Below, piece by piece: positions 47,627 through 64,000 of a stretch of 64,000 bases of DNA. The translations under genes and the position numbers were made by a program. The DNA is from an uncultured Planctomycetia bacterium. GTDB lineage: Bacteria; Planctomycetota; Planctomycetia; Pirellulales; S012-138. The DNA is taken from contig CAVSWR010000036.1 in NCBI GenBank assembly GCA_963731685.1, positions 263,191-327,190 on the forward strand, in the 5' to 3' direction. Each line of letters starts with the position of its first letter. Position 1 is the stretch's first letter. The notes below the pieces were generated by a model. The model saw nothing but the letters and a program-made list of their open reading frames with translations, was not told the origin of the DNA and searched no databases.

Positions 47627-47699
47627 GGGGACGTAGCTCAATCGGGAGAGCACCGGCTTTGCAAGCCGGGGGTTGGCGGTTCGATCCCGCTCGTCTCCA
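47627..47699 (+). tRNA. tRNA-Ala (anticodon TGC)
   Basis: Cloverleaf GGGGACG/CGTCTCC acceptor stem with the G3:U70 Ala identity pair. Anticodon loop TTTGCAA. T-arm GGTTCGATCC. Discriminator A. CCA is not encoded. Confidence 0.9.
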
Positions 47700-47702
47700 C
47701 TA

Positions 47703-48915: not shown

Positions 48916-51693
48916 GTGCCAGCCCGGGTTGATACAATCAGCAAAGCAAATGCCGCGCCCCGGCCCGACTACGACCGCGACCTGGCGCTGCTCGACGCCG
49001 ACACCGGCTACCAGTCCGACAGCGCCGCCCGCTACGCCAGTGAGATGCTCGCGCTGGCCCAAGGCAGCGACACGCCCTGGGGCTGGGAGCACTCTGCGGA
49101 GGCCGCCGCCGCGGCCGAATACGCCTCCTCGATGGCCGCCGCCGCACTGACCGACGGCACGGCCACGATCGACGAGAGCTACACGTTCGCGCAGACCGTG
49201 GCCGACGAGACCCGCACGCTTTCGGTTAACGAGGCCACGGCCGCCTTCAATTCCGCCACGGCGCTGGCCGCGGCCGAGTACAACCACGTGACGTCCCACG
49301 CCACGGCCCTGGCCAACGACAACTACGACATCGCCGAGCGCGTGCCGACGGCGGTGATCACCTTGGTGGGATTGGACGACCTGGATGGCCGCGCGGCCGG
49401 CGACCCGGCCGACTTCATCGCGGCCTTGAACAAGAACGGCGGCTCCCCGTTCAGTGACCTCGGCGACAGCTTCTACACGGCGGCCGTCGACAAGATGTTC
49501 TACACGCCGCCGGAGACCGACGAACTCGGCTACAGCAACAGCTTCGACCGCTGGCTCGGCGAGAACCTCATCCGCCCCGCCGTCGGCGACGACAACCTCA
49601 TCAACGCCACCGACGCCCAGCTATTCTGGGGCACCGCGGCCTTCGCCGCGATAAGCGCGGTGAGCATTGTCTACGCCGCCCCAGTGCTCGCCACGGCCGT
49701 GGTCGACATGGGCATCAAGGGGGTGGTGTTCACACTGGCGAAAGATTTCATCATTGGCGGCGCGATCTCTGGCATCATCGACGCGGGCGTGCAGTTGGAG
49801 CACATGTACGAAAACGGCGGCGACTTCAATTGGAGTCGACTCGGCGAGTCCATCGTCGTGGGCGGTGTGATGGGCATGGGGATGGGAACGGCCTTCCGCG
49901 GCGTGCAGACCTTGTCGAAGGCCCTCACCACGCGCTACGCCGCGGCTTGCGTGCCGGTCACCATCGGCCAAAAGCTGGGGCTCGGCTACTTGGGCAGCAA
50001 GGGCATCGCTCATGGCGTCGAGGCCATCGGCAACGGCGAGACGGTCGAAGGCGTCAGCAGCATCTTGTTCGGCGCCCTCGGCGTGGCCGGCGCCCTGTCC
50101 ATGCGTTGGAACTGCTTCACGGCCGGCCATCAGATTCTCGCCTTGCCGCTCGGCGTGACCGTCGCTGAAGCTTCGGCAAGCATGAGCGACGAAACGCGAG
50201 GTTGGCGAACTGAGTATTTCATCGGCGCCAGCGTGGCGATTGCGGTCGGCATGACCGGTTGGGTGCGCGAACGCCGCAAACGCCGGCGACTGTTGGCGCA
50301 AGCCCGCGACCATGTGTATGGTTCCCAGTGGGAATCAAACTCGCGACATGACCTCGACGATGACGCATATCCAGATTTGATGCCGGAAGCAATCGCCATG
50401 GATGACGCCGAGGCTACTATTTGGGCGGATGAATCGTACCTGCCGGACGCGGACTATTTTGATGAGCGCGCAGCTCTACTTCAGGCGCTGAACAAGCTTG
50501 CGGCGTAGCGTGCCTACCGCGGCCACAAGCGGAGTTGATTCGCGATCCGCGCGCCGCGAAGCCATCCGCTGCGCGCAAAGCGAAGATCCCGGCCGATCAG
50601 CCGAGAGAATCACATCGCGGCGCGTCTATGGATCGGCCTTTCACTCATCGTCGCTTTCTTCTGTCTTTTCCAGGCGCTGCCCCGTTGGTCGCGCACCGAC
50701 GGCCTTTCTTCGTCGCGCACGCGACACGCTGTCGCTCCGTCTTCGCTCGACACGAATATCGCCAGCGACTACCGCGTCGGCGCCGAGAACTACAAGTTCT
50801 TCAACATCGAGGACATTCGCCCGGGACAGCTGGTCCTGGCGTCCAACCCTGCCACCGGCCAGCTTGAACCGCGCCGTGTCCTCCAAACCTTCCAGCGCAC
50901 AACCTACCACCTCCGCTACCTGACCTTCGAGTCTACCACCGGCGTCCGCCAAACCTTCGAGACAACGGACGAGCACCCGTTCTGGTCGCAATCTGAATTC
51001 CGCTGGGTATCCGCCGGCGACCTCCAACCCGGTGACCGCGTCATCGACCCGCACGGCGCGCAATCCCTCCTCGTCACCACCCACCGCGAGCCCCACCCCG
51101 AAGGCGTAACCGTCTACAACTTCGAGGTCGAAGGCTTCCACAGCTACTTCGTAGCGGCAAAAGGCCCTGGCGGTGAGCCGGTATTGGTGCATAATGCGGA
51201 CTGCGGCCCCAACTCGCCCAGCCGCTCCAGATCCCGTCCGTCAAACGACAACTTCCGTAACGGCTATGATCGGATATTTGGAAATGGTTCATCAGCAGAA
51301 ACGCGGGTGTTCCAAAATGAAATCCCCATCATGACACCAGCGCAAACGCAGCAAGCGCTAAGGGCTGGCGGCTACACAGGAAACACTTCGTGGGCATACA
51401 GCATTCATGATCATCACATCTCTCCGCGTTGGCTGGGTGGAAAAGACGCGGGACCACTGCTACGTGTGCGAGGTTTCGAGCATATTACCGATCTCGAACC
51501 TGGACTCTGGGCGCACGTGAAGCGAAACATCCCGGGGCTGACGGAAAAAACTACTGCAAATGTGCAGCGATTGATGCGAGACGGATTCGTCACAAGTGAA
51601 GAAATCATGCGAACGTTGTTCAGTTTTTACAAGGCTCGATATCCGCAACTATCGGATGAGGCAATCCTAAACGTGCTGAGACAGGGGTTGTGA
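48916..51693 (+). CDS. Polymorphic-toxin cassette A: 5'-truncated (homology to full-length copy starts ~48965, about aa 205) with two apparent frameshifts (~50440-50470 and ~50618); Hint domain plus C-terminal toxin tip A (DHH-type putative HNH/EndoVII-fold nuclease)
   Basis: ORFs 48916..50508, 50535.. and 51184..51693 together parallel copy 57352..60717. Landmarks are CFTAGHQILAL, …VYNFEVEGFHSYFVAAKGPGGEPVLVHN, then the tip …SIHDHHISPRWLGG…. Confidence 0.55.
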
Positions 51694-52660: not shown

Positions 52661-52752
52661 TCGATTTTCTGAGTTGTTCTCGCCAACTTGTCATAAAAGA
52701 GGCCAAGGCGCCGAGCTGCCATATCCGGCGTGCAACTTCTCGACAGAGCGCC

Positions 52753-54088
52753 GTGCTCTTGAAAAACGGCCTTGGCTCGCCAGCTTTCGCCGGCGGCGGC
52801 GCCGACCATGTCTACGAATCGCAATGGTGGATGGAACTGCCGCGCCACGCGGATGAAGACGATGAATTCGATCGGGCGATGAGCGAAGGAATCGCCGTGA
52901 CTGACGGCGCCGATGCGGATGTCTGGTCGGACGAGTCATTCCTCCCTGAGGCCGATTCTTTCCGTGATTGCGAACCTTCGCCAACTTCCGTTGGAGTTCA
53001 CGCTTTAGGCTGCTTGACGCCGCCGCGCGCGGAACGATCAACGGCAACGGCGCGCTTTTCGAAAGGCGCCACGTTCCCATAAAACGCTTATCGAGTCCAA
53101 GCCGCCGCGCGAATCCCGCCGCGGCGCGCTCTGGCTCGGTGTTTCGCTCCTCGTGGCCTTCTTCTCTCTGTTCCAGGCCCTTCCCCGTTGGTCAGCAAAC
53201 GACGGCCTTGCGCCGACGTGCGTTGAGCAAGCCGTCACTCTCGACTCGCTCGACACCAAACTTGCCGGCGACTACCGCGTCGGCGGCGAGTCCTTCAGCT
53301 TCTTCAACATCGAGGACATTCGCCCCGGACAACTCGTCCTCGCCTCGAACCCCGCCACCGGCCAGCTTGAGCCCAAACGCGTCAAGCAAATCTTCCGCCG
53401 CATTACGGACCATCTCCGCCACCTCACCTTTGAATCCTCCACCGGCGCCCGCCAAACCTTCGAAACCACCGACGAGCACCCCTTCTGGTCGCAATCCGAA
53501 TTTCGCTGGCGCCCCGCCGGCGACCTCCAACCCGGCGACCGAGTCATCGACCCCCACGGCGCCACCTCTCTCCTCGTCGCCACGCATCGCGAACCCCACC
53601 CCGAAGGCGTCCCAGTCTACAACTTCGAGGTAGAAGGCTTCCACAGCTACTTCGTAGCGGCAAAAGGCCCTGGCGGCCAGCCAGTGTTGGTGCATAATGC
53701 AAATTCACAAACATATGGCCCCCACAAATCAATTGGAACGAAAACCGGAGAGCAACGTCATCACATAATCCAAGATGCAAGAGCCAGGATTGTCGACAAC
53801 TACAAGTATGGCGATGCTCCCGCGGTTCGACTTCGGGGGAACCGCTTGCGTGGCACGCCGCATGGCGATGCGAGCGCGATGCAAACTCGAATAAATCAGA
53901 CGCTCCTAAAGAAAGGCACGACTCGGATAAGGTATCCACAAGCTCGATCGGCGGCGCGCGCTGAACTAAGGGCCGCAGGTCTCACGGAAAAGGAAATAGA
54001 CATCTTGATAGAGGAAGCCGACGATTACTTCATAAACGAACTGAAAATTGATGTAACGCAACGCATTTTCAACGTCCCAACGCAATGA
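52753..54088 (+). CDS. Polymorphic-toxin cassette B: 5'-truncated orphan (homology starts ~52800 at ADHVYxxQW); apparent frameshift ~53040-53090; Hint domain plus toxin tip B (RHHIIQ-type putative HNH-fold nuclease)
   Basis: …VYNFEVEGFHSYFVAAKGPGGQPVLVHNANSQTYGPHKSIGTKTGEQRHHIIQDARARIV… The tip is unrelated to tips A, C and D. Confidence 0.55.
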
Positions 54089-54921: not shown

Positions 54922-55062
54922 TGCAACCTTGAATATTGGTTTCAAACGTGGACTGCTGATCGTTGCGATGGTCTGCCCGTGCTACCTGTTGCGGAATTGA
55001 GGGCGACCAAGAACAGCCAAATCCGACTTGTGAGCCAGTTAGGTTCGCAACTAGCTCGGACT

Positions 55063-56712
55063 TACCTACCTGAGCGGCAAAGGCATCGCTCATGGCGTCG
55101 AGGCGATCGGCAACGGCGAGACGGTCGAAGGCATCAGTAGCGTCCTCTTGGGCGCCCTCGGCGTGGCCGGCGCCTTGTCGATGCGTTGGAACTGCTTCAC
55201 CGCCGGCCATCAGATTCTCGCCTTGCCGCTCGGCGTGACGGTGGCCGAAGCCGCGCTCGGCGCGAATGATGAAACGACCGGTTGGCGAACCGAGTATCTC
55301 ATCGGCGCCGGCGTAGCGATTGCCGTCGGCATGACCGGTTGGGCGCGCGAGCGCCGCAAACGCAGGCGATTGTTGGCGGAAGCCCGCGACCATGTGTATG
55401 GTTGCCAGTGGGAAACAAACTCGCGACATGACTTCGACGATAACGACGACCCGTTGCGGGAAGCAATCGCCATGGACCACGCGGAAGCCGCTATTTGGTC
55501 AGATGAATCGTTCCTCCCAGACGGGGATTCGTTCAATGAGCCAACAACCACGTCTTTTACTTCAGGCTCTGAACAAGCTCACAGCGTAGCGTGCCTTGCG
55601 CCGCCGCATGTGGCGCTTTCCGCTCGAATGCCGTGCGCCACGAAACCATCCGCTGCCCGCAATGCGAACGTGAAAGTTAAGACGCCGCGCCGATCCCGTC
55701 GCAGCGGTCTTTGGCTTGGTCTTTCACTCGTCGTAGCTTTCTTCTGCCTGTTCCAGGCGTTACCTCGCTGGTCTTCCACCGATGGCCTGCCATCGGCGGG
55801 CAATCGGCACGCCGTCGCTCCTTCTTCGCTCGACACGAACATCGCCAGCGACTACCGCGTCGGCGCGAACACGTACAACTTCTTCAACATCGAGGACATT
55901 CGACCCGGACAACTGGTCCTCGCCTCGAACCCCGCCACCGGCCAACTCGAACCGCGGCGAGTCCTTCAAACCTTCCGCCGCACAACCCATCACCTGCGCC
56001 ACCTGACCTTCCAATCCCCCACCGGCGCCCACCAAACCTTCGAAACCACCGACGAGCACCCCTTCTGGTCCCACGGCGCCGCCCGCTGGACCCCCGCTGG
56101 CGACCTCCAACCCGGCGACCGAGTCATCGACCCCCACGGCGCCAATCCCTACTCATCGCCACCCGCCGCGACCCCCATCCCGAAGGCGTCACCGTCTACA
56201 ACTTCGAGGTCGAAGGTTTCCACAGCTATTTCGTAGCCGCCAAAGGCCCTGGCGGCCAACCGGTATTGGTTCATAATGCAGCCTGCGGCCCCAACTCGCC
56301 CAGCCGGTCCAGATCCCGTCCGGCCAACGACGAATACCGTTCGAGTTACGACCGGATTTTTGGTGGCACCCCTAGGGGCGGAGCACATCCTGCTACTAAG
56401 AAAGCTGCAAGTTTTGGCAGTACAATGCATGCCGATAAACCCGGACACCTTCCGGACCAACTGCGTCAACGCTTTCCAGAGACTGAGTTTGAATTCACCA
56501 AACCGGGCGTTGCAGGACAAGATGTAAAGGTCGCGGGTGGCAAACACCCTTCGGATTACGCTGGATCGACGTGGCCAAGCGGAGTTAACCATGCTGATTT
56601 CAAACCGAATACCCCCGGTGGCTTGAAGACGTTCCAATCCGACCAGCTCAAGAAATGGTTGGAGAGGACCGAAATGTTACGCTACAATCCATCAACCGGA
56701 GACCTACTGTGA
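55063..56712 (+). CDS. Polymorphic-toxin cassette B2: 5'-truncated orphan (homology starts ~55063, just before the CFTAGHQ motif); 1-nt deletion ~56150; Hint domain plus toxin tip C (unassigned)
   Basis: ORFs 55148..56236 and 55711..56712. The tip shares its first ~25 aa (ACGPNSPSRSRSRPANDEYRSSYDRIFGG) with tip A and then diverges (…HADKPGHLPDQLRQRFPETEFEFTKPGVAGQDVKVAGGKHPSDYAGSTWPSGVNHADFKPNTPGG…). Confidence 0.5.
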
Positions 56713-57152
56713 TTAGCAAACAATTGGCGTATCCAGGGTTTACGATTGATGTTCCATGCAGCTGGGATGATATTACGGCGACTCTTGATGATGCGGACGC
56801 GCCTATTACAATCGCAGATCCTCAAGCAGGTTTGGGGGCGTTTCAGATATCGCCTGCGTTATATAAACGTGGTGTCTTACCCAAAGTGACGCCCAACGAC
56901 CTGCGGACTATGCTTCTTGAGTTTACGTCCGCTAAGGGCTTTCATGCCGCTGGCGACGTGATAGAGAATCTGGGCGACACCATTGTGGTGGGCGGCGTTT
57001 TTCGCAGTTCAAACTACGCCGTGGAAGTTGCCTACGCCTCTGACGGGCGGAGTATTCTGTTGGTAACCTATGTTTGTGAATGGTTTCAGAGGCGTCAGGA
57101 ATCGGACGTGAGAATGGCAGTGATCCGCTCAATCCGCTTTGTTGATTCTTAA
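56709..57152 (+). CDS. Candidate immunity protein for toxin tip C
   Basis: GTG overlapping the toxin stop (GTGA). 148 aa, soluble. Confidence 0.4.
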   Translation: MISKQLAYPGFTIDVPCSWDDITATLDDADAPITIADPQAGLGAFQISPALYKRGVLPKVTPNDLRTMLLEFTSAKGFHAAGDVIENLGDTIVVGGVFRSSNYAVEVAYASDGRSILLVTYVCEWFQRRQESDVRMAVIRSIRFVDS

Positions 57153-57351
57153 AGGCATGACGCATGACCAAGTCATGCTGTAACGACTCGTAGACCGCCA
57201 ATGCTTTAACCGAGAAGTAAAACGGGGACATCCTACTTTTTCGTTGCGGGTGCGCCGGCGTGCTGTCGAATGATCCGCCGCCGTGACCATCGTCTACGGC
57301 GGCCCGGCGATCGTCGCTGAGGTGAAGAGAAAAAGGGGATAAGTCCAATAT

Positions 57352-60300
57352 TTGCTCAATTTCAATCTGCCGTCGGTCGAGTTTTTGGTCGATCGGGCGT
57401 CGCACGAGGCGACCTGGGCCGCGGCCGAGGCGCCGCAATACGTCGCCTATCGCACGGCGGCGGCCCAGCTTCAACGCACTTACGACACCGCCGACATCAA
57501 CGCCGGGCGGGCCTGGGAAACCGCCCTGGCCACGGCCGGCTACAACCGCGACGTGGCCGAGGCCGCCGCCGAATATGCGAAAGAAACGGCCGTGGCCGCC
57601 GCGGGCAAGGCCTACGTCGACGGCGTCGCCCCCGTGGAGAGGACGCGCGCCGCCGACGTGGCCATAGCCTATCTCCTCTACGACTTCGCCGTGGCCGGCG
57701 CGCAATACGATTACGACATCGCCGATGTCCCGGACATGAACGTCTACAACGCCGCCGTGTCGGCCGCCGCGGGCGTTCGCGACGCGGCCGTCAAGACCGC
57801 CGAAAAGGCCTACGACACCGACGCCATCCAGGTCGAAAAGACGCGTCTTATCGCCCAGGCCGGCGCCGAACGTGACGCGAGCGTGGCTTTCGCCACCGCC
57901 GACGAGACTTGGCTCATCGCCGCCGCCGACGCCACGAAGACCGCCGCGCTGGCCGACGCCACGGCCGTCCACGACCGCGACCTGGCGCTGTTGAACACTG
58001 ACACCGGCTACCAGTCCGACAGCGCCGCCCGCTACGCCGATGAGATGCTCGCGCTGGCCCAAGGCAGCGACACGCCGTGGGGTTGGGAACACTCTGCGGA
58101 GGCCGCCGCCGCGGCCGAATACGCCTCCTCGATGGCCGCCGCCGCACTGACCGACGGCACAACCACGATCAACGAGAGCTACACGTTCGCGCAGACCGAG
58201 GCCGACGAGACCCGCACGCTTTCGGTCAACGAGGCCACGGCCGCCTTCAATTCCGCCACGGCGCTGGCCGCGGCCGAGTACAACCACGTCACGTCCCACG
58301 CCACGGCCCTGGCCAACGACAACTACCACATCGCCGAGCGCGTGCCGACGGCGGTGATCAACCTGGTCGGCCTGGACGACCTGGAAGGCCGCGCGGCCGG
58401 CGACCCGGCCGATTTCATCGCGGCCTTGAACAAGAACGGCGGCTCTCCCTTCAGCGACCTCGGCGACAGCTTCTACACGGCGGCCGTGGATAAGATGTTC
58501 TACACGCCGCCGGAGACCGACGAACTGGGCTACAGCAACAGATTCCAGCGCTGGCTTGGCGAGAACCTCATCCGCCCCGCCGTCGGCGACGACAATCTTA
58601 TCAACGCCAGCGACGCCGAGTTATTCTTCGGCACGGCCGCCTTCGCCACGATCGCGGCCGTCACCATCGTCTACACAGGGCCGACAATCGTTAGTTCGGT
58701 GATCGCCGCGCAGGGCGCCATCGCCGCCTTTGCCGGCAGTTCGTTTTTGGCGTATGAAGTCACGCAAGCGGCCACCGGCGCCGTCATCTCGGGCATCCTC
58801 GATGTGGCCATGCAGTTGCAAGCCGGCACGTCTTGGAGCCGCATCGACTGGGGGCAGGCCGGCATGGCCGCCTTGAACGGCGCCGTGACCGGCGCGGTTT
58901 TCGGCGCGGGCTTCAAGGGTCTCCAATTCGCCGCGACCGCCATCACCACGCGTTTCGCTGCGGCGTGCTTGCCGGTCACCTTCGGACTTAAAGGCATGAT
59001 GGCGGGCATGGCGGTCGACGGTATCAAGAATGGCGTCGAAGCGTGGAACAACGGCGACTTTGTCGGAGGCGCCACAAGCATAGCCTTTGGCATACTCGGC
59101 TTGAAAGGCGCCTTGAGTTTGGGCACAAACTGCTTCACCGCCGGCCATCAGATTCTCGCCTTGCCGCTCGGCGTGACGGTGGCCGAAGCCGCGCTCGGCG
59201 CGAATGATGAAACGACCGGTTGGCGAACCGAGTATCTCGTCGGCGCCGGCGTAGCGATTGCCGTCGGCATGACCGGTTGGGCGATCGAACGCCGCAAACG
59301 CCGGCGATTGTTGGCGGAAGCCCGCGACCACGTGTATGGTTGCCAGTGGGAATCAAACTCGCGACATGAACTCGACGACGACGCCCCGTTGCGGGAAGCA
59401 ATCGCCATGGACCATGCGGAAGCCACTATTTGGGCGGATGAATCGTTCCTGCCAGACGCGGACTCGTTCTATGAGCCAACAACCACCTCTTTTACTTCAG
59501 GCTCTGAACAAGTTCACAGCGTAGCGTGCCTCGCGCCGCCGCAAGTGGCACTTTCCACTCAAACGCCGCGCACCGCAAAAACATCCGCCGCCCGCAAAGC
59601 GAAGGTACCGACCGAGCCGCAGCGTAAATCACATCGCAGCGGTCTCTGGCTGGGTCTTTCACTCGTCGTTGCTTTCTTCTGCCTCTTCCAGGCGCTACCT
59701 CGCTGGTCCCGCACCGACGGCCTAACATCAGCGGGCACCCAACACGGTGTCGCGTCCGCGTCTTTCGACACCAACTTAGGCGCCGACTACCGCGTTGCCG
59801 GCGAATCCTACCAATTCTTCAAAATCGAGGATATCCGTCCCAACCAACTCGTCCTCGCCTCGAACCCCGCCACCGGCCAACTCGAACCGCGGCGAGTTCT
59901 CCAAACCTTCCGTCGCACAACCTATCACCTGCGCCACCTGACCTTCGAGTCCCCATCCGGCGCCCGTCAAACTATCGAAACCACCGACGAGCACCCCTTC
60001 TGGGCGCAATCCGAGTTTCGGTGGCGCCCTGCCGGCGACCTCCAACCCGGCGACCGCGTCATCGACCCGCACGGCGCGCAATCCCTCCTCGTCACCACCC
60101 ACCGCGAGCCCCACCCCGAAGGCGTAGCCGTCTACAACTTCGAGGTCGAAGGCTTCCACAGCTACTTCGTAGCGGCAAAAGGCCCTGGCGGGGAACCAGT
60201 GTTGGTTCATAATGCTAGTTACGGTGAGAATGCGCCAAGGGCGGGAGTCGCGTCAGCTGGCCCGGGAGCGGCGCAATCAAAGTCCAGCGGTTTTACGATG

Positions 60301-60717
60301 TGGCGTTGGATCACTGGTGAGCCCACAAAAGCGTTTCCGCAGGCTCGATTTTCTTTCTACCGTGTCGCCAGATCAGAGAAGTTTGCTTCGCACTTTGGAT
60401 TTTCGAGAGTAGGAGCCGCAAATCGGTCCGAATACGCAGCTTTCCTGCGACAATTGCGTAGCGCTGAGTTTAGACAAAGCAACGTCGTACAAGGCGGTTG
60501 GGCTGGCCGCGGTGCTGACGGAAACATCGTTATGGCACTAAGCCAGCGCAATCTGAACAACACTATGGCTGCGACTCATGAACTGACGCATTTAGTTCGG
60601 AACTTCCGGGGGATTACGCCTTTTGAGGCTGAGGCATCAATGCGTGGAGTCTTTCGATACAGAGCTTGGATTGAGGAGGCCAGAACATGGTGGCACATGT
60701 GGAGAGGTGGGCAATGA
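57352..60717 (+). CDS. Intact polymorphic toxin (1121 aa): Ala-rich N-terminal region, variable Gly-zipper-like hydrophobic segment, split Hint domain, C-terminal HExxH (zinc-metallopeptidase-like) toxin tip D
   Basis: Single uninterrupted ORF from TTG 57352. Contains CFTAGHQILALPLG…(insert with RRKRRRLL and the TM helix LWLGLSLVVAFFCLF)…IEDIRPNQLVLASNPATGQLEPRRV…TTDEHPFW…GDRVIDP…VYNFEVEGFHSYFV…VLVHNAS, then tip D with AATHELTHLV. Confidence 0.7.
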   Translation: MLNFNLPSVEFLVDRASHEATWAAAEAPQYVAYRTAAAQLQRTYDTADINAGRAWETALATAGYNRDVAEAAAEYAKETAVAAAGKAYVDGVAPVERTRAADVAIAYLLYDFAVAGAQYDYDIADVPDMNVYNAAVSAAAGVRDAAVKTAEKAYDTDAIQVEKTRLIAQAGAERDASVAFATADETWLIAAADATKTAALADATAVHDRDLALLNTDTGYQSDSAARYADEMLALAQGSDTPWGWEHSAEAAAAAEYASSMAAAALTDGTTTINESYTFAQTEADETRTLSVNEATAAFNSATALAAAEYNHVTSHATALANDNYHIAERVPTAVINLVGLDDLEGRAAGDPADFIAALNKNGGSPFSDLGDSFYTAAVDKMFYTPPETDELGYSNRFQRWLGENLIRPAVGDDNLINASDAELFFGTAAFATIAAVTIVYTGPTIVSSVIAAQGAIAAFAGSSFLAYEVTQAATGAVISGILDVAMQLQAGTSWSRIDWGQAGMAALNGAVTGAVFGAGFKGLQFAATAITTRFAAACLPVTFGLKGMMAGMAVDGIKNGVEAWNNGDFVGGATSIAFGILGLKGALSLGTNCFTAGHQILALPLGVTVAEAALGANDETTGWRTEYLVGAGVAIAVGMTGWAIERRKRRRLLAEARDHVYGCQWESNSRHELDDDAPLREAIAMDHAEATIWADESFLPDADSFYEPTTTSFTSGSEQVHSVACLAPPQVALSTQTPRTAKTSAARKAKVPTEPQRKSHRSGLWLGLSLVVAFFCLFQALPRWSRTDGLTSAGTQHGVASASFDTNLGADYRVAGESYQFFKIEDIRPNQLVLASNPATGQLEPRRVLQTFRRTTYHLRHLTFESPSGARQTIETTDEHPFWAQSEFRWRPAGDLQPGDRVIDPHGAQSLLVTTHREPHPEGVAVYNFEVEGFHSYFVAAKGPGGEPVLVHNASYGENAPRAGVASAGPGAAQSKSSGFTMWRWITGEPTKAFPQARFSFYRVARSEKFASHFGFSRVGAANRSEYAAFLRQLRSAEFRQSNVVQGGWAGRGADGNIVMALSQRNLNNTMAATHELTHLVRNFRGITPFEAEASMRGVFRYRAWIEEARTWWHMWRGGQ

Positions 60718-61108: not shown

Positions 61109-61321
61109 ACGGAAGAAAGGACGCGGGCGCATATATTGGGACACTTGCACAATCTGTCGGAGAAAGGAGGACATTCTACTTTTCCTGAATACGTGGAACG
61201 CCCCTTTGTTGTCAGAGCGCGACCTCACTGGCGGCAACTTCCTCCGTGACGGCCTTGTGATCGACTCGTCCGTTTCCTGCGACGACGATGTCCACACGTC
61301 GGTCGCCACACACGGAGGAGA

Positions 61322-64000
61322 TAAGTCCAATATTTCCTCCGTTCCCTTGCTCAATTACAACCTCCCGTCGGTCGATTTTCTGGTCGATCGGGCGTCGCAC
61401 GAGGCGACCTGGGCCGCGGCCGAGGCGCCGCAATACGTGGCCTATCGCACGGCGGTGGCCGGGTTGCAACGGGCTTACGACACGGCCGACATCAACGCCG
61501 GGCGGGCCTGGGAAACCGCCCTGGCCACGGCCGGCTACAACCGCGACGTGGCCGACGCCGCCGCCGAGTATGCGAAAGAAACGGCCGTGGCCGCCGCCGG
61601 CAAGGCCTACGCCGACGGCGTCGCCCCCGTGGAGAGGACCCGCGCCGCCGCCGTGGCCGCCGCCTATCGCGTCTACGACCTCGCCGTGGCCGACGCCCAG
61701 CGCGATTACGACACGGCCGATGTCCCGGATATGAACGCCTACAACGCCGCCGTGTCGGCCGCCGCGGGCGTTCGCGACGCGGCCGTCAAGACCGCCGAGA
61801 AGGCCTACGACACCGGGGCCATCCAGGTCGAAAAGACGCGTCTCATCGCCCAGGCCGGCGCCGAGCGTGACGCGAGCGTGGCTTTCGCCACGTCCGACGA
61901 GACTTGGCTCATCGCCGCCGCCGACGCCACGAAGACCGCCGCGCTGGCCGACGCCGCGGCCGTCCACGACCGCGACCTGGCGCTGCTGAACACCGACACC
62001 GGCTACCAGTCCGACAGCGCGGCCCGCTACGCCGACGAGATGCTCGCGCTGGCCCAAGGCAGCGACACGCCCTGGGGCTGGGAACACTACGCGGAGGCCG
62101 CCGCCGCGGCCGAATACGCCTCTTCGATGGCCACGGCCGCACTGACCGACGGCACAACCACCATCAACGAAAGCTACGCGTTCGCCCAAACCGAGGCCGA
62201 CGAGACCCGCACGCTTTCGGTGAACGAGGCCACGGCCGCCTTCAATTCCGCCACGGCGCTGGCCGCGGCCGAGTACAACCACGTCACGTCCCACGCCACG
62301 GCCCTGGCCGACGACAACTACCACATCGCCGAGCGCGTGCCGACGGCGGTGATCAACCTGGTCGGCCTGGACGATCTGGAAGGCCGCGCGGCCGGCGACC
62401 CGGCCGACTTCATCGCGGCCTTGAACAAGAACGGCGGCTCTCCCTTCAGCGACCTCGGCGACAGCTTCTACACGGCGGCCGTCGACAAGATGTTCTACAC
62501 GCCGCCGGAGACCGACGAACTCGGCTACAGCAACAGCTTCGACCGCTGGCTCGGCGAAAACCTCATCCGCCCCGCCATCGGCGACGACAATCTCATCAAC
62601 GCCACCGACGCCCAGCTATTCTGGGGCACCGCGGCCTTCGCCGCGATAAGCGCGGTGACCATCGTCTACGCCACCCCAGTGCTCGCCACGGCGGTGGTCG
62701 ACATGGGCATTAAGGGTGTGGCGTTCACTCTCGCGAAGGATTTCATAATCGGCGGCGCGATTTCTGGCGTCATCGACGCCGGAGTCCAGTTGGAGCACAT
62801 GTACGAAAACGGTGGTGACTTCAATTGGAGCCGACTCGGCGAGTCCGTCGTCGTGGGCGGCGTGATGGGCATGGGCATGGGAACCGCCTTCCGCGGCGTG
62901 CAGACCTTGTCGAAGGCCCTCACCACGCGCTACGCGGCGGCTTGCGTGCCGGTCACCATCGCCCAAAAGCTGGGGCTTACCTACCTGAGCGGCAAGGGCA
63001 TCGCGCATGGCGTCGAGGCGATCGGCAACGGCGAGACGGTCGAAGGCGTCAGTAGCGTCCTGTTGGGCGCCCTCGGCGTGGCCGGCGCCTTGTCGATGCG
63101 CTGGAACTGCTTCACCGCCGGCCATCAGATTCTCGCCTTGCCGCTCGGTGTGACCGTCGCCGACGCTGCGCATCGGCGGCAAGTGATGAAACGAGCGGTT
63201 GGCGAACGGAGTATCTCATCGGCGCCGGCGTGGCGATTGCCGTCGGCATGACCGGTTGGGCGCATGAACGCCGCAAACGCAGGCGACTGTTGGCGCAAGC
63301 GCGCGACCATGTGTATGGTTGCCAGTGGGAATCAAACTCGCGACATGATGTTGACGACGACGACGAATCGAGCCCGTTGCGGGAAGCAATCGCCATGGAC
63401 GACGCGGAAGCCGCTATTTGGTCGGATGAATCGTTTCTGCCAGACGCGGATTCGTTTGATGAGCCAGCAACTACCTCCTTCGCTTCAGGCGCCGAGCAGT
63501 TCACGGCGTAGCATGCCTGCCGCCGCCGCAAGCGGCGCAGTTGATTCAAACGCCGCGCGCCGCAAAACCATCCGCTGCCCGCAAAGCGAAGATCCGACCG
63601 AGCCGCTGCGAGAATCACATCGCGGCGGTCTTTGGTTTGGTCTTTCACTCGTCGTCGCTTTCTTCTGCCTCTTCCAGGCGCTACCCCGCTGGTCCCACAC
63701 CGACGGCCTTCAATCAGCGCGCACTCGACACGGTGTCGCTCCGCTTCTCTCGACACGAACATCGCCAGCGACTACCGCGTCGGCGCGCGACACCTACAAA
63801 TTCTTCAACATCGAGGACATTCGTGCCGGACCAACTCGTCCTCGCCTCGAACCCCGCCACCGGCCAACTTGAACCGCGGCGCGTTCTCCAAACCTTCCGT
63901 CGCACAACCTATCACCTGCGCCACCTAACCTTCCAGTCCCCCACCGGCGCCCGTCAAACCTTCGAAACCACCGACGAGCACCCCTTCTGGTCTCACGGCG
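61322..64000 (+). CDS. Polymorphic-toxin cassette D (3' end outside window): starts at the same boundary as the intact copy (GDKSNI…LLNYNLPSVDFLV); three or more apparent frameshifts (~63165, ~63505, ~63790)
   Basis: ORF 61086..63251 matches copy 57352.. from 61322 on. The central hydrophobic segment is of the cassette-A type. After CFTAGHQILALPLGVTVA the frame is lost and resumes in ORFs 63230.., 63264.. and a further frame to the window end. Confidence 0.55.

Follow-up and report, generated by a model that had tools for sequence, protein, structure and literature searches.

The 64,000-nt stretch analysed here (contig CAVSWR010000036.1, positions 263,191 to 327,190; hereafter the window) comes from an uncultured Planctomycetia bacterium and carries an array of toxin cassettes. 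One of these, the open reading frame (ORF) c3 (57352–60717, + strand, 1121 aa), encodes a polymorphic toxin in which a Hint domain of the Pretoxin-HINT (PT-HINT) type appears to be split, eleven residues after its start, by an insert with two hydrophobic helices. From the sequence we consider it probable that this insert acts as an export and anchoring module and that the Hint domain serves for its release. Of the cassettes in the window, c3 alone keeps its reading frame over the full length. Its product starts with an Ala-rich helical N-region and continues with a hydrophobic pre-toxin region rich in Gly and Ala, the split Hint and, at the C-terminus, the toxin.

Translation of 59131–60215 gave CFTAGHQILAL, ERRKRRRLL, an acidic stretch, LWLGLSLVVAFFCLFQALPRW and finally YQFFKIEDIRPNQ...TTDEHPFW...VLVHN, which is the order described in an initial annotation of the window. 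The N-terminal piece of the Hint, CFTAGHQILAL (aa 594–604, 59131–59163), contributes the Cys1 nucleophile and strands β1–β2, as judged from a position-specific scoring matrix (PSSM), conservation and an AlphaFold2 (AF2) model. It is followed by an acidic spacer (aa 605–627, 59164–59232), which is predicted to share its side of the membrane with the Hint, and by the first transmembrane helix (TM1, YLVGAGVAIAVGMTGWAI, aa 628–645, 59233–59286), which is seen in the hydropathy profile and falls in an AF2 helix spanning residues 52–88 of the model. A polybasic, stop-transfer-like run, ERRKRRR (aa 646–652, 59287–59307), stands directly after TM1. The charged linker of 112 aa that comes next (aa 653–764, 59308–59643) is predicted to be cytoplasmic; it contains the helical acidic motifs LLAEARDHVYGCQWE and LREAIAMDHAEATIWADESFLPDADSF and ends in the basic sequence RKSHRSG. 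Helical segments of the linker are visible in the AF2 model, and the remainder has a predicted local distance difference test score (pLDDT) below 50. The second helix (TM2, LWLGLSLVVAFFCLFQAL, aa 765–782, 59644–59697) resembles a signal anchor, with a Kyte-Doolittle hydropathy of 2.09 and an AF2 helix at residues 189–208 that reaches a pLDDT of 90. A 35-aa spacer (aa 783–817, 59698–59802) separates TM2 from the C-terminal piece of the Hint (aa 818–954, 59803–60213), which holds strand β3 (ESYQFFK), the IEDI motif, block B (TTDEHPFW, 59980–60003) and the terminal VLVHN, ending with Asn954 (60211–60213). The toxin region (aa 955–1121, 60214–60714) starts with Ala at position +1 and has no match to a Pfam family. 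It contains an HExxH motif (HELTH, 60577–60591), which hints at a metallopeptidase-type toxin.

The insert comprises 213 aa (aa 605–817) if its end is set where the conserved residues of the C-piece begin. The initial annotation had described it as an insert of ~220 aa with a polybasic stretch and one transmembrane helix. The polybasic stretch is present and the size needed only slight refinement, but the hydropathy profile shows two helices instead of one: TM1 just before the polybasic run and TM2 further on.

Pfam recognizes a single domain in c3, Pretoxin-HINT (PF07591), at aa 824–955 (E = 1.7e-19, 70.9 bits, cut-off 27.7), and NCBIfam gave no match. As the PF07591 match covers profile positions 10–137 of 137, the N-terminal block is missing from the contiguous domain; CFTAGHQI is found 224 residues away from KIEDI. 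We scored the protein with a 14-column PSSM derived from 41 unsplit PT-HINT N-termini at loci in other genomes. The site TNCFTAGHQILALP (59125–59166) reached 18.4 bits and was the best in all 1121 aa, the next best site scoring 8.4. Shuffling of a 387-aa segment reproduced 18.4 bits in 3 out of 1000 cases.

The same arrangement recurs in relatives. An earlier homologue search with a 581-aa query had yielded 13 close relatives, and the wider family surfaced with an exhaustive search of representatives, which returned 10,710 matches, 121 of them at E ≤ 1e-30. Relatives were classed as long if block B was preceded by 330 residues or more. This applied to 22 proteins, and in 20 of them the motif located 219–317 aa before block B is the top PSSM site of the entire protein, which may be up to 4938 aa long; the remaining two keep a degenerate version, CFTVDMHL or CFTEDMSL. 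The distance from the Cys to block B is bimodal, with 58–85 aa in canonical and 196–317 aa in split proteins, and c3 (284 aa) falls in the latter class. The 257 proteins found to contain block B include 39 canonical forms and 32 split single chains. Among TM2-type proteins with enough upstream sequence the motif is present in 32/35, a strong motif being absent from three. In an alignment of 20 split forms with ~30% identity (A4), the invariant columns are C21, F22, T305, H308, H380 and N381, corresponding to Cys1, Phe2, the Thr and His of block B, the penultimate His and the terminal Asn. These results support CFTAGHQILAL as the displaced N-terminal strand pair of the Pretoxin-HINT domain.

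It could be argued that CFTAG is a chance motif, that the Hint starts near YQFFKIEDI with a nucleophile of its own or none, and that the hydrophobic segments belong to the pre-toxin region. In favor of this, fusing CFTAGHQILAL directly to the C-piece neither extended nor improved the Pfam match: with three different junctions and a scrambled control, the score (76.0 versus 76.2 bits) and the profile start were unchanged. However, positions 10–11 of the PF07591 model are the K-I of KIEDI. The model thus begins after CFxAG and cannot score it. A plain MAFFT alignment also seemed to speak for a chance motif, as it placed the canonical CFxAGT beside SFDTNL in the C-piece of c3. We rejected this placement as an alignment artefact, since SFDTNL is lineage-specific and not conserved in the family. 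Nor is there, across the family, any conserved Cys, Ser or Thr ahead of IEDI that could replace Cys1, as the initial annotation had considered; the stretch there is the β3 strand x-R-Y-x-T-K-N-IEDI. The chance-motif explanation is therefore already contradicted, and we regard it as extremely unlikely.

Structure prediction agrees with the displaced N-terminus. When the input alignment lacked split relatives, AF2 modeled the N-piece with a pLDDT of 74–79 and the core above 90. With 50 sequences, 13 of them split relatives, the 10 residues of the N-piece that contain the Cys reached a pLDDT of 96, with β strands at residues 22–23 and 27–30. In the same run the Hint core scored 91–98, TM1 and TM2 were helical and the linker stayed below 50. 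From the pLDDT values and strand assignments we infer that the N-piece docks into the Hint fold, and together the two pieces are predicted to restore a normal Hint fold. The PSSM, the recurrence in relatives, the conservation and the AF2 model, which the initial annotation had proposed as a check, all agree with its claim that the upstream CFxAG is the true N-terminal block of a Hint split by the insert.

The site of the insertion can be read from unsplit Planctomycetota relatives, which have the sequence CFxAGTQVVV-(short turn)-YxTxNIED; the split forms carry the insert exactly in this turn. It is thus strongly supported that the insert interrupts the chain in the β2–β3 turn after residue 11, known as the S1 site. 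Engineered inteins that are split at S1, with an N-piece of 10–12 aa, still trans-splice (PMC3620165).

The PF07591 score, the block-A nucleophile, Thr-x-x-His in block B, the C-terminal His-Asn and the predicted Hint fold all assign the domain to the PT-HINT / type-A bacterial intein-like (BIL) group. With Cys1, the Thr and His of block B, the penultimate His, the terminal Asn and Ala at +1, the sequence strongly supports a complete catalytic set of the type-A-BIL-like PT-HINT kind. The junction in c3 reads VLVHN followed by ASYG, and Ala occupies the +1 position in 80 out of 130 TM2-type proteins. Most TM2-type proteins continue as HN-A-[DN]-[CY], and in canonical PT-HINT domains a Cys is found at +2 after His-Asn in 26/36.

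The insert is coding sequence. Between c3 and the neighboring cassette c2 the ratio of nonsynonymous to synonymous substitutions (dN/dS) amounts to 0.39 in the insert and to 0.11 in TM2, and diverged in-frame copies of the insert exist in P0001 and P0003. In the same comparison the linker has a dN/dS of ∼0.5.

The properties of the insert were summarized as medians over 23 split proteins. The distance from the Cys to TM1 is 34 aa, and the segment before TM1 has one K or R and four D or E. Six of the first 15 residues after TM1 and five of the last 15 before TM2 are K or R. The loop between the helices has a length of 112 aa with ∼18 basic and ∼18 acidic residues, and 31 aa separate TM2 from IEDI. 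According to the positive-inside rule, positively charged loops are located on the cytoplasmic side. On the basis of this rule and the charge distribution, the loop is predicted to be cytoplasmic and both Hint pieces to lie across the membrane. A two-helix membrane hairpin with a positive-inside charge bias is thus a well-supported prediction. Many loops have an acidic amphipathic motif of the φ-D-x-φ-F type after the polybasic run, such as AIDSLFFG, ALDALFHADD or LDALCDALFHG, and its counterparts in c3 are ARDHVYGCQWE and LREAIAMDHAEATIWADESF. In one subfamily (P0020, P0102, P0197 and relatives) TM2 bears the sequence CFxx[AG]GW, e.g., LTLAMTACFIAAGW, which resembles block A of the Hint; in P0197 this TM2 sequence ranks second among the PSSM sites, with 19.2 bits.

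The closest loci in species-representative genomes almost all belong to Planctomycetota: Planctomycetia, Pirellulaceae, Thermoguttaceae, Planctomycetaceae, the isolate Stieleria tagensis and Phycisphaerae. Strain TO1_6 of S. tagensis has a copy in one ORF (L027). The loci from Firmicutes and Streptomyces are all canonical, and one Armatimonadota protein (L052) has a hairpin with a short loop at the same insertion site. The sequences strongly support the view that the split layout is characteristic of the family and common to many polymorphic toxins of Planctomycetota, rather than peculiar to the c3 locus. Two giant relatives, P0092 (4721 aa) and P0141 (4938 aa), start with an Arg-rich segment followed by [LF]E.LEDR.LL, which may be a lineage-specific export signal.

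We propose the following mechanism for the split PT-HINT. The hairpin would be located in the cytoplasmic membrane of the producing cell, with TM1 acting as a stop-transfer sequence after the exported carrier. The linker would remain in the cytoplasm, and TM2 would act as an internal signal anchor that carries the Hint C-piece and the toxin across. With this topology both Hint pieces would meet, and assemble, on the far, periplasmic side. There, an N-S acyl shift at Cys594, giving a thioester, and cyclization of Asn954 would free the carrier and/or the toxin from the membrane-held Hint. Alternatively, the freed amino group could attack the thioester and ligate the two flanks, so that the anchor is removed and the carrier is joined to the toxin. 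This outcome is chemically conceivable because type-A BILs, which mostly cleave, can ligate their flanks without a +1 nucleophile (PMC4031507). The initial annotation had suggested a membrane-translocation or release module within the autoprocessing domain. That suggestion is reasonable. A membrane hairpin agrees with our data, while a role in export, anchoring or release is what we infer from it.

Several observations weigh against this single-chain mechanism or against c3 as a working example of it. The start codon of c3 is TTG, the sequence homologous to its N-region lies inside a much longer gene at locus L003, and the cassettes neighboring c3 are frame-disrupted. For these reasons c3 may be a silent cassette. 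Neither an N-terminal signal peptide nor another export signal is evident in c3, and the topology model requires a route of export for the carrier. The AF2 model has an ambiguity as well, namely an extra short strand before β3 in this lineage (YRV, aa 813–815), which may occupy part of the position of β2. Finally, about half of the split-type loci in the assemblies are interrupted between TM1 and TM2, and a single-chain mechanism leaves these interruptions unexplained.

The interruptions would be accounted for if, at least in some members of the family, translation does not continue through the linker and the Hint is split over two polypeptides. The carrier would then end after CFxAG, TM1 and the polybasic run, a separate gene would provide TM2, the Hint C-piece and the toxin, and the two halves would associate within the membrane in the manner of an S1-type split intein, so that one carrier could serve several toxin genes. 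c3 would be covered by this model only if its single ORF were an exception. The clearest case is a locus found as identical DNA in two sources (L084 from JGI and L085 from Logan). Its first ORF, of 806 aa, ends ...CFVAGTQVVV-TM1-SRRGQRNAGRKKDNHLPDSPTRVF-TGA, and a second one (MSSQLP...), in the same frame and with TM2, the Hint C-piece and a toxin, is opened by an AGGA and an ATG 63 nt further on. Similar two-ORF breaks are seen in L004, L011, L001 (two cassettes), L012, L014 and L015, and ∼12 split-type sites among the loci collected are interrupted as compared to ∼10 continuous ones. We rejected the explanation that all interruptions are long-read errors, as several occur in assemblies with short-read-style names (k141_, NODE_, scaffold_; the read type is deduced from these names) and one is identical in two sources. 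On the other hand, c3, c2, P0001, P0003 and 32 database proteins run through the insert as single chains. L014 and L015 are ∼98% identical in their constant part and do not count as independent cases, and some breaks look like assembly indels or decay: those in L007, L002 and L003 occur in contig_N-type assemblies, and the window's cassettes c1 and c4 are clearly degraded. Between L014 (3469–4239) and L015 (3283–4053), which come from two metagenome-assembled genomes, the identity of ∼98% extends through CF, TM1, stop, ATG and TM2 and is lost abruptly just after TM2, so in that lineage the variable cassette begins after TM2.

The organization of the orphan cassettes also fits a two-gene arrangement, as they often start with Met, ∼10 aa and TM2, like signal-anchored genes, and the cassette boundary matches that start (L010 compared with L001/L012). 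We rejected the view that the short TM2-Hint ORFs are all gene-calling fragments, because what lies ahead of many of them is a stop, unrelated sequence or another cassette. The linker being predicted to be cytoplasmic, a chain break within it would leave the topology undisturbed, and S1 split inteins do function in trans (PMC3620165). However, some TM2-Hint genes have no CF partner within 9.5–15 kb (L086/L087 and L088), which suggests that the C-piece may work alone, and an S1-type C-intein is capable of spontaneous C-cleavage (PMC3620165). These partnerless TM2-Hint-toxin genes have a good ribosome-binding site; the one in L086/L087 (7001–7999) follows a giant Big_13 protein, and L088 holds an array of three. 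We consider a two-polypeptide Hint rather unlikely. It is likewise unlikely that the Hint of a subfamily is a natural two-gene split domain, with each half tethered by one TM helix and one carrier loadable with several toxins without DNA rearrangement. Loading would then be non-covalent, or covalent through a BIL-type ligation that discards the membrane anchors, and c3 would be a fused version.

In a different reading the hairpin acts in the victim: it would enter the inner membrane of the target cell and help the toxin across, and the Hint would then free the toxin. This would be akin to the TM regions of some type VI secretion system effectors and the entry domains of CdiA and colicins. Entry and translocation domains of polymorphic toxins are usually found just before the toxin, and the insert does immediately precede the toxin; c3 also has more Gly/Ala-rich hydrophobic segments upstream (aa 421–468 and 526–595). 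However, a loop of 70–160 residues with ∼18 basic and ∼18 acidic residues would need to cross the target membrane unaided, and the charge pattern is that of a hairpin inserted by Sec/YidC. Moreover, the hairpin topology puts toxin and carrier on the same side, so that the hairpin alone cannot carry the toxin across. We find this reading quite improbable, and an export and anchoring hairpin in the producer's own membrane, released by the Hint, remains the explanation that we prefer.

Compared to known systems, the c3-type Hint is closest to PT-HINT (PF07591) and type-A BIL domains such as the Clostridium thermocellum BIL (PDB 2LWY). It shares with them the sequence family, Cys1, the TxxH of block B, the C-terminal His-Asn, the lack of a +1 nucleophile and the position directly before a variable toxin. 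It differs in that the chain is interrupted after residue 11 by ∼70–250 aa with two TM helices, and in that position 6, usually Thr, is His in the c3 lineage. In all the comparisons of sequence and fold that we made, the c3-type Hint is a PT-HINT / type-A BIL domain, with the membrane hairpin in the β2–β3 turn as the sole difference. Full-text searches of open-access papers on PT-HINT, HINT and BIL domains, together with the 2012 survey of polymorphic toxins, yielded no description of a membrane insert in a HINT domain.

The engineered S1 split inteins (such as Ssp DnaB, Ssp DnaX and Ter ThyX; PMC3620165) have the same β2–β3 break and N-pieces of 10–12 aa. They were made in the laboratory from true inteins, their pieces are soluble and a +1 nucleophile is present, whereas the c3-type break is natural, usually bridged by a membrane hairpin and located in a BIL/PT-HINT domain. 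Inteins with homing endonucleases and the natural split inteins (DnaE) likewise show that the Hint fold tolerates a large insertion or a chain break. In these, however, the site lies between blocks B and F (S0, with an N-piece of ∼100 aa; PMC3620165) and the inserted module is a nuclease. The Hint of c3 is not an intein, because it has no +1 nucleophile, the residue there being Ala, and no host protein to restore, its flanks being a carrier and a variable toxin. Neither does c3 correspond to a naturally split intein encoded by separate genes, as one ORF runs through the insert. The Hedgehog autoprocessing domain (PDB 1AT0) is only 14% identical and has a sterol-recognition region instead of the terminal His-Asn; c3 has His-Asn with the toxin directly after it, and no lipid transfer is indicated. 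A contiguous PT-HINT-like segment (residues 1098–1220) in the 1368-aa chain of PDB 8W20/8W22, named "Intein C-terminal splicing domain-containing protein", matches the C-piece with E = 6.2e-15. In this sequence search the Hint of that chain, which we take to be the UmbC subunit of a Streptomyces umbrella toxin, matches the C-piece region only.

The cassette array of the window contains further copies of the split Hint. A degenerate DNA pattern for CFTAGHQI has four matches in the whole window (50113, 55193, 59131 and 63108), with 0.01 expected. Frames were compared by DNA alignment of the cassettes, all of which are on the + strand. Cassette c1 (50113–51200) has the split-Hint layout with -7/+1 indels in the insert and a stop at 50508. 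The partial cassette c1b (∼52700–53720) starts inside the insert (DHVYESQWW...) and continues with TM2, the Hint C-piece and a weak Tox-SHH tail. In c2 (55058–56290) the insert is in frame, and a -1 frameshift is found in the Hint core between DPHGA and QSLL. Cassette c4 (63108–64000) is disrupted by multiple indels that begin shortly after CFTAG, and it is cut off by the end of the window. The initial annotation had described the insert as conserved in all cassettes; this is correct as regards its presence, but the frame is intact throughout only in c3. It had also stated that the orphan cassette c2 begins exactly at CFTAG. This did not prove correct, as the homology of c2 to c1 and c4 begins ∼135 nt upstream of the motif.

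The five cassettes have differing tails after VLVHN, each with a small ORF behind it that we assume to encode immunity. A variable tail after a conserved region, a small downstream gene and orphan cassettes are features of a polymorphic toxin system. In the Pfam scan no tail or downstream ORF gave a match above threshold; the best match among the tails, and the one to a toxin family, was the weak Tox-SHH match of c1b (E = 0.006). Cassettes with different tails share the sequence A[DA]CGPNSPSRSRSRPxNDxxRxxYDRIFG right after VLVHN (51184–51290 and 56236–56340), and it is also present in P0006, P0008 and P0014. The -1 frameshift of c2 (∼56100) is repeated in P0003 and P0011 on other contigs; the copies come from three contigs (338, 188 and 478 kb), and each of them then reads ...GANP[SY]SSPP.... 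Upstream of CFTAG, c3 is only 60–70% identical to the other cassettes. After CFTAG it is near-identical to c2 (55193) over 66 codons, with a synonymous divergence (dS) of 0.04. This jump in identity indicates that a recombination junction coincides with the motif.

Two antisense ORFs, at 56932–58329 (- strand, 465 aa) and 61212–62324 (- strand, 370 aa), are Gly/Arg/Val-rich and overlap the Ala-rich N-regions; they look like artefacts of GC composition rather than genes. A tRNA-Ala(tgc) gene (47627–47700, + strand) is located just upstream of the array, which starts at ∼48.3–48.9 kb, and could mark an island boundary.

Hint is the common engine of inteins, Hedgehog proteins and many bacterial toxins, and a natural, widespread form that bears a membrane hairpin in its first turn and keeps every catalytic residue would show that autoprocessing can be coupled to membrane topology. 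For protein engineering it would offer a natural precedent for the S1 split site, which was found by trial. For annotation it means that Pfam sees a truncated PT-HINT and that the second half is often called as a protein of its own, 230–400 aa long. Should the two-gene forms prove functional, they would represent the first natural split Hint that is tethered to the membrane, as well as a new means of toxin diversification. Planctomycetota may use a previously unconsidered route to bring giant toxins through the inner membrane or to retain them in it until they are released.

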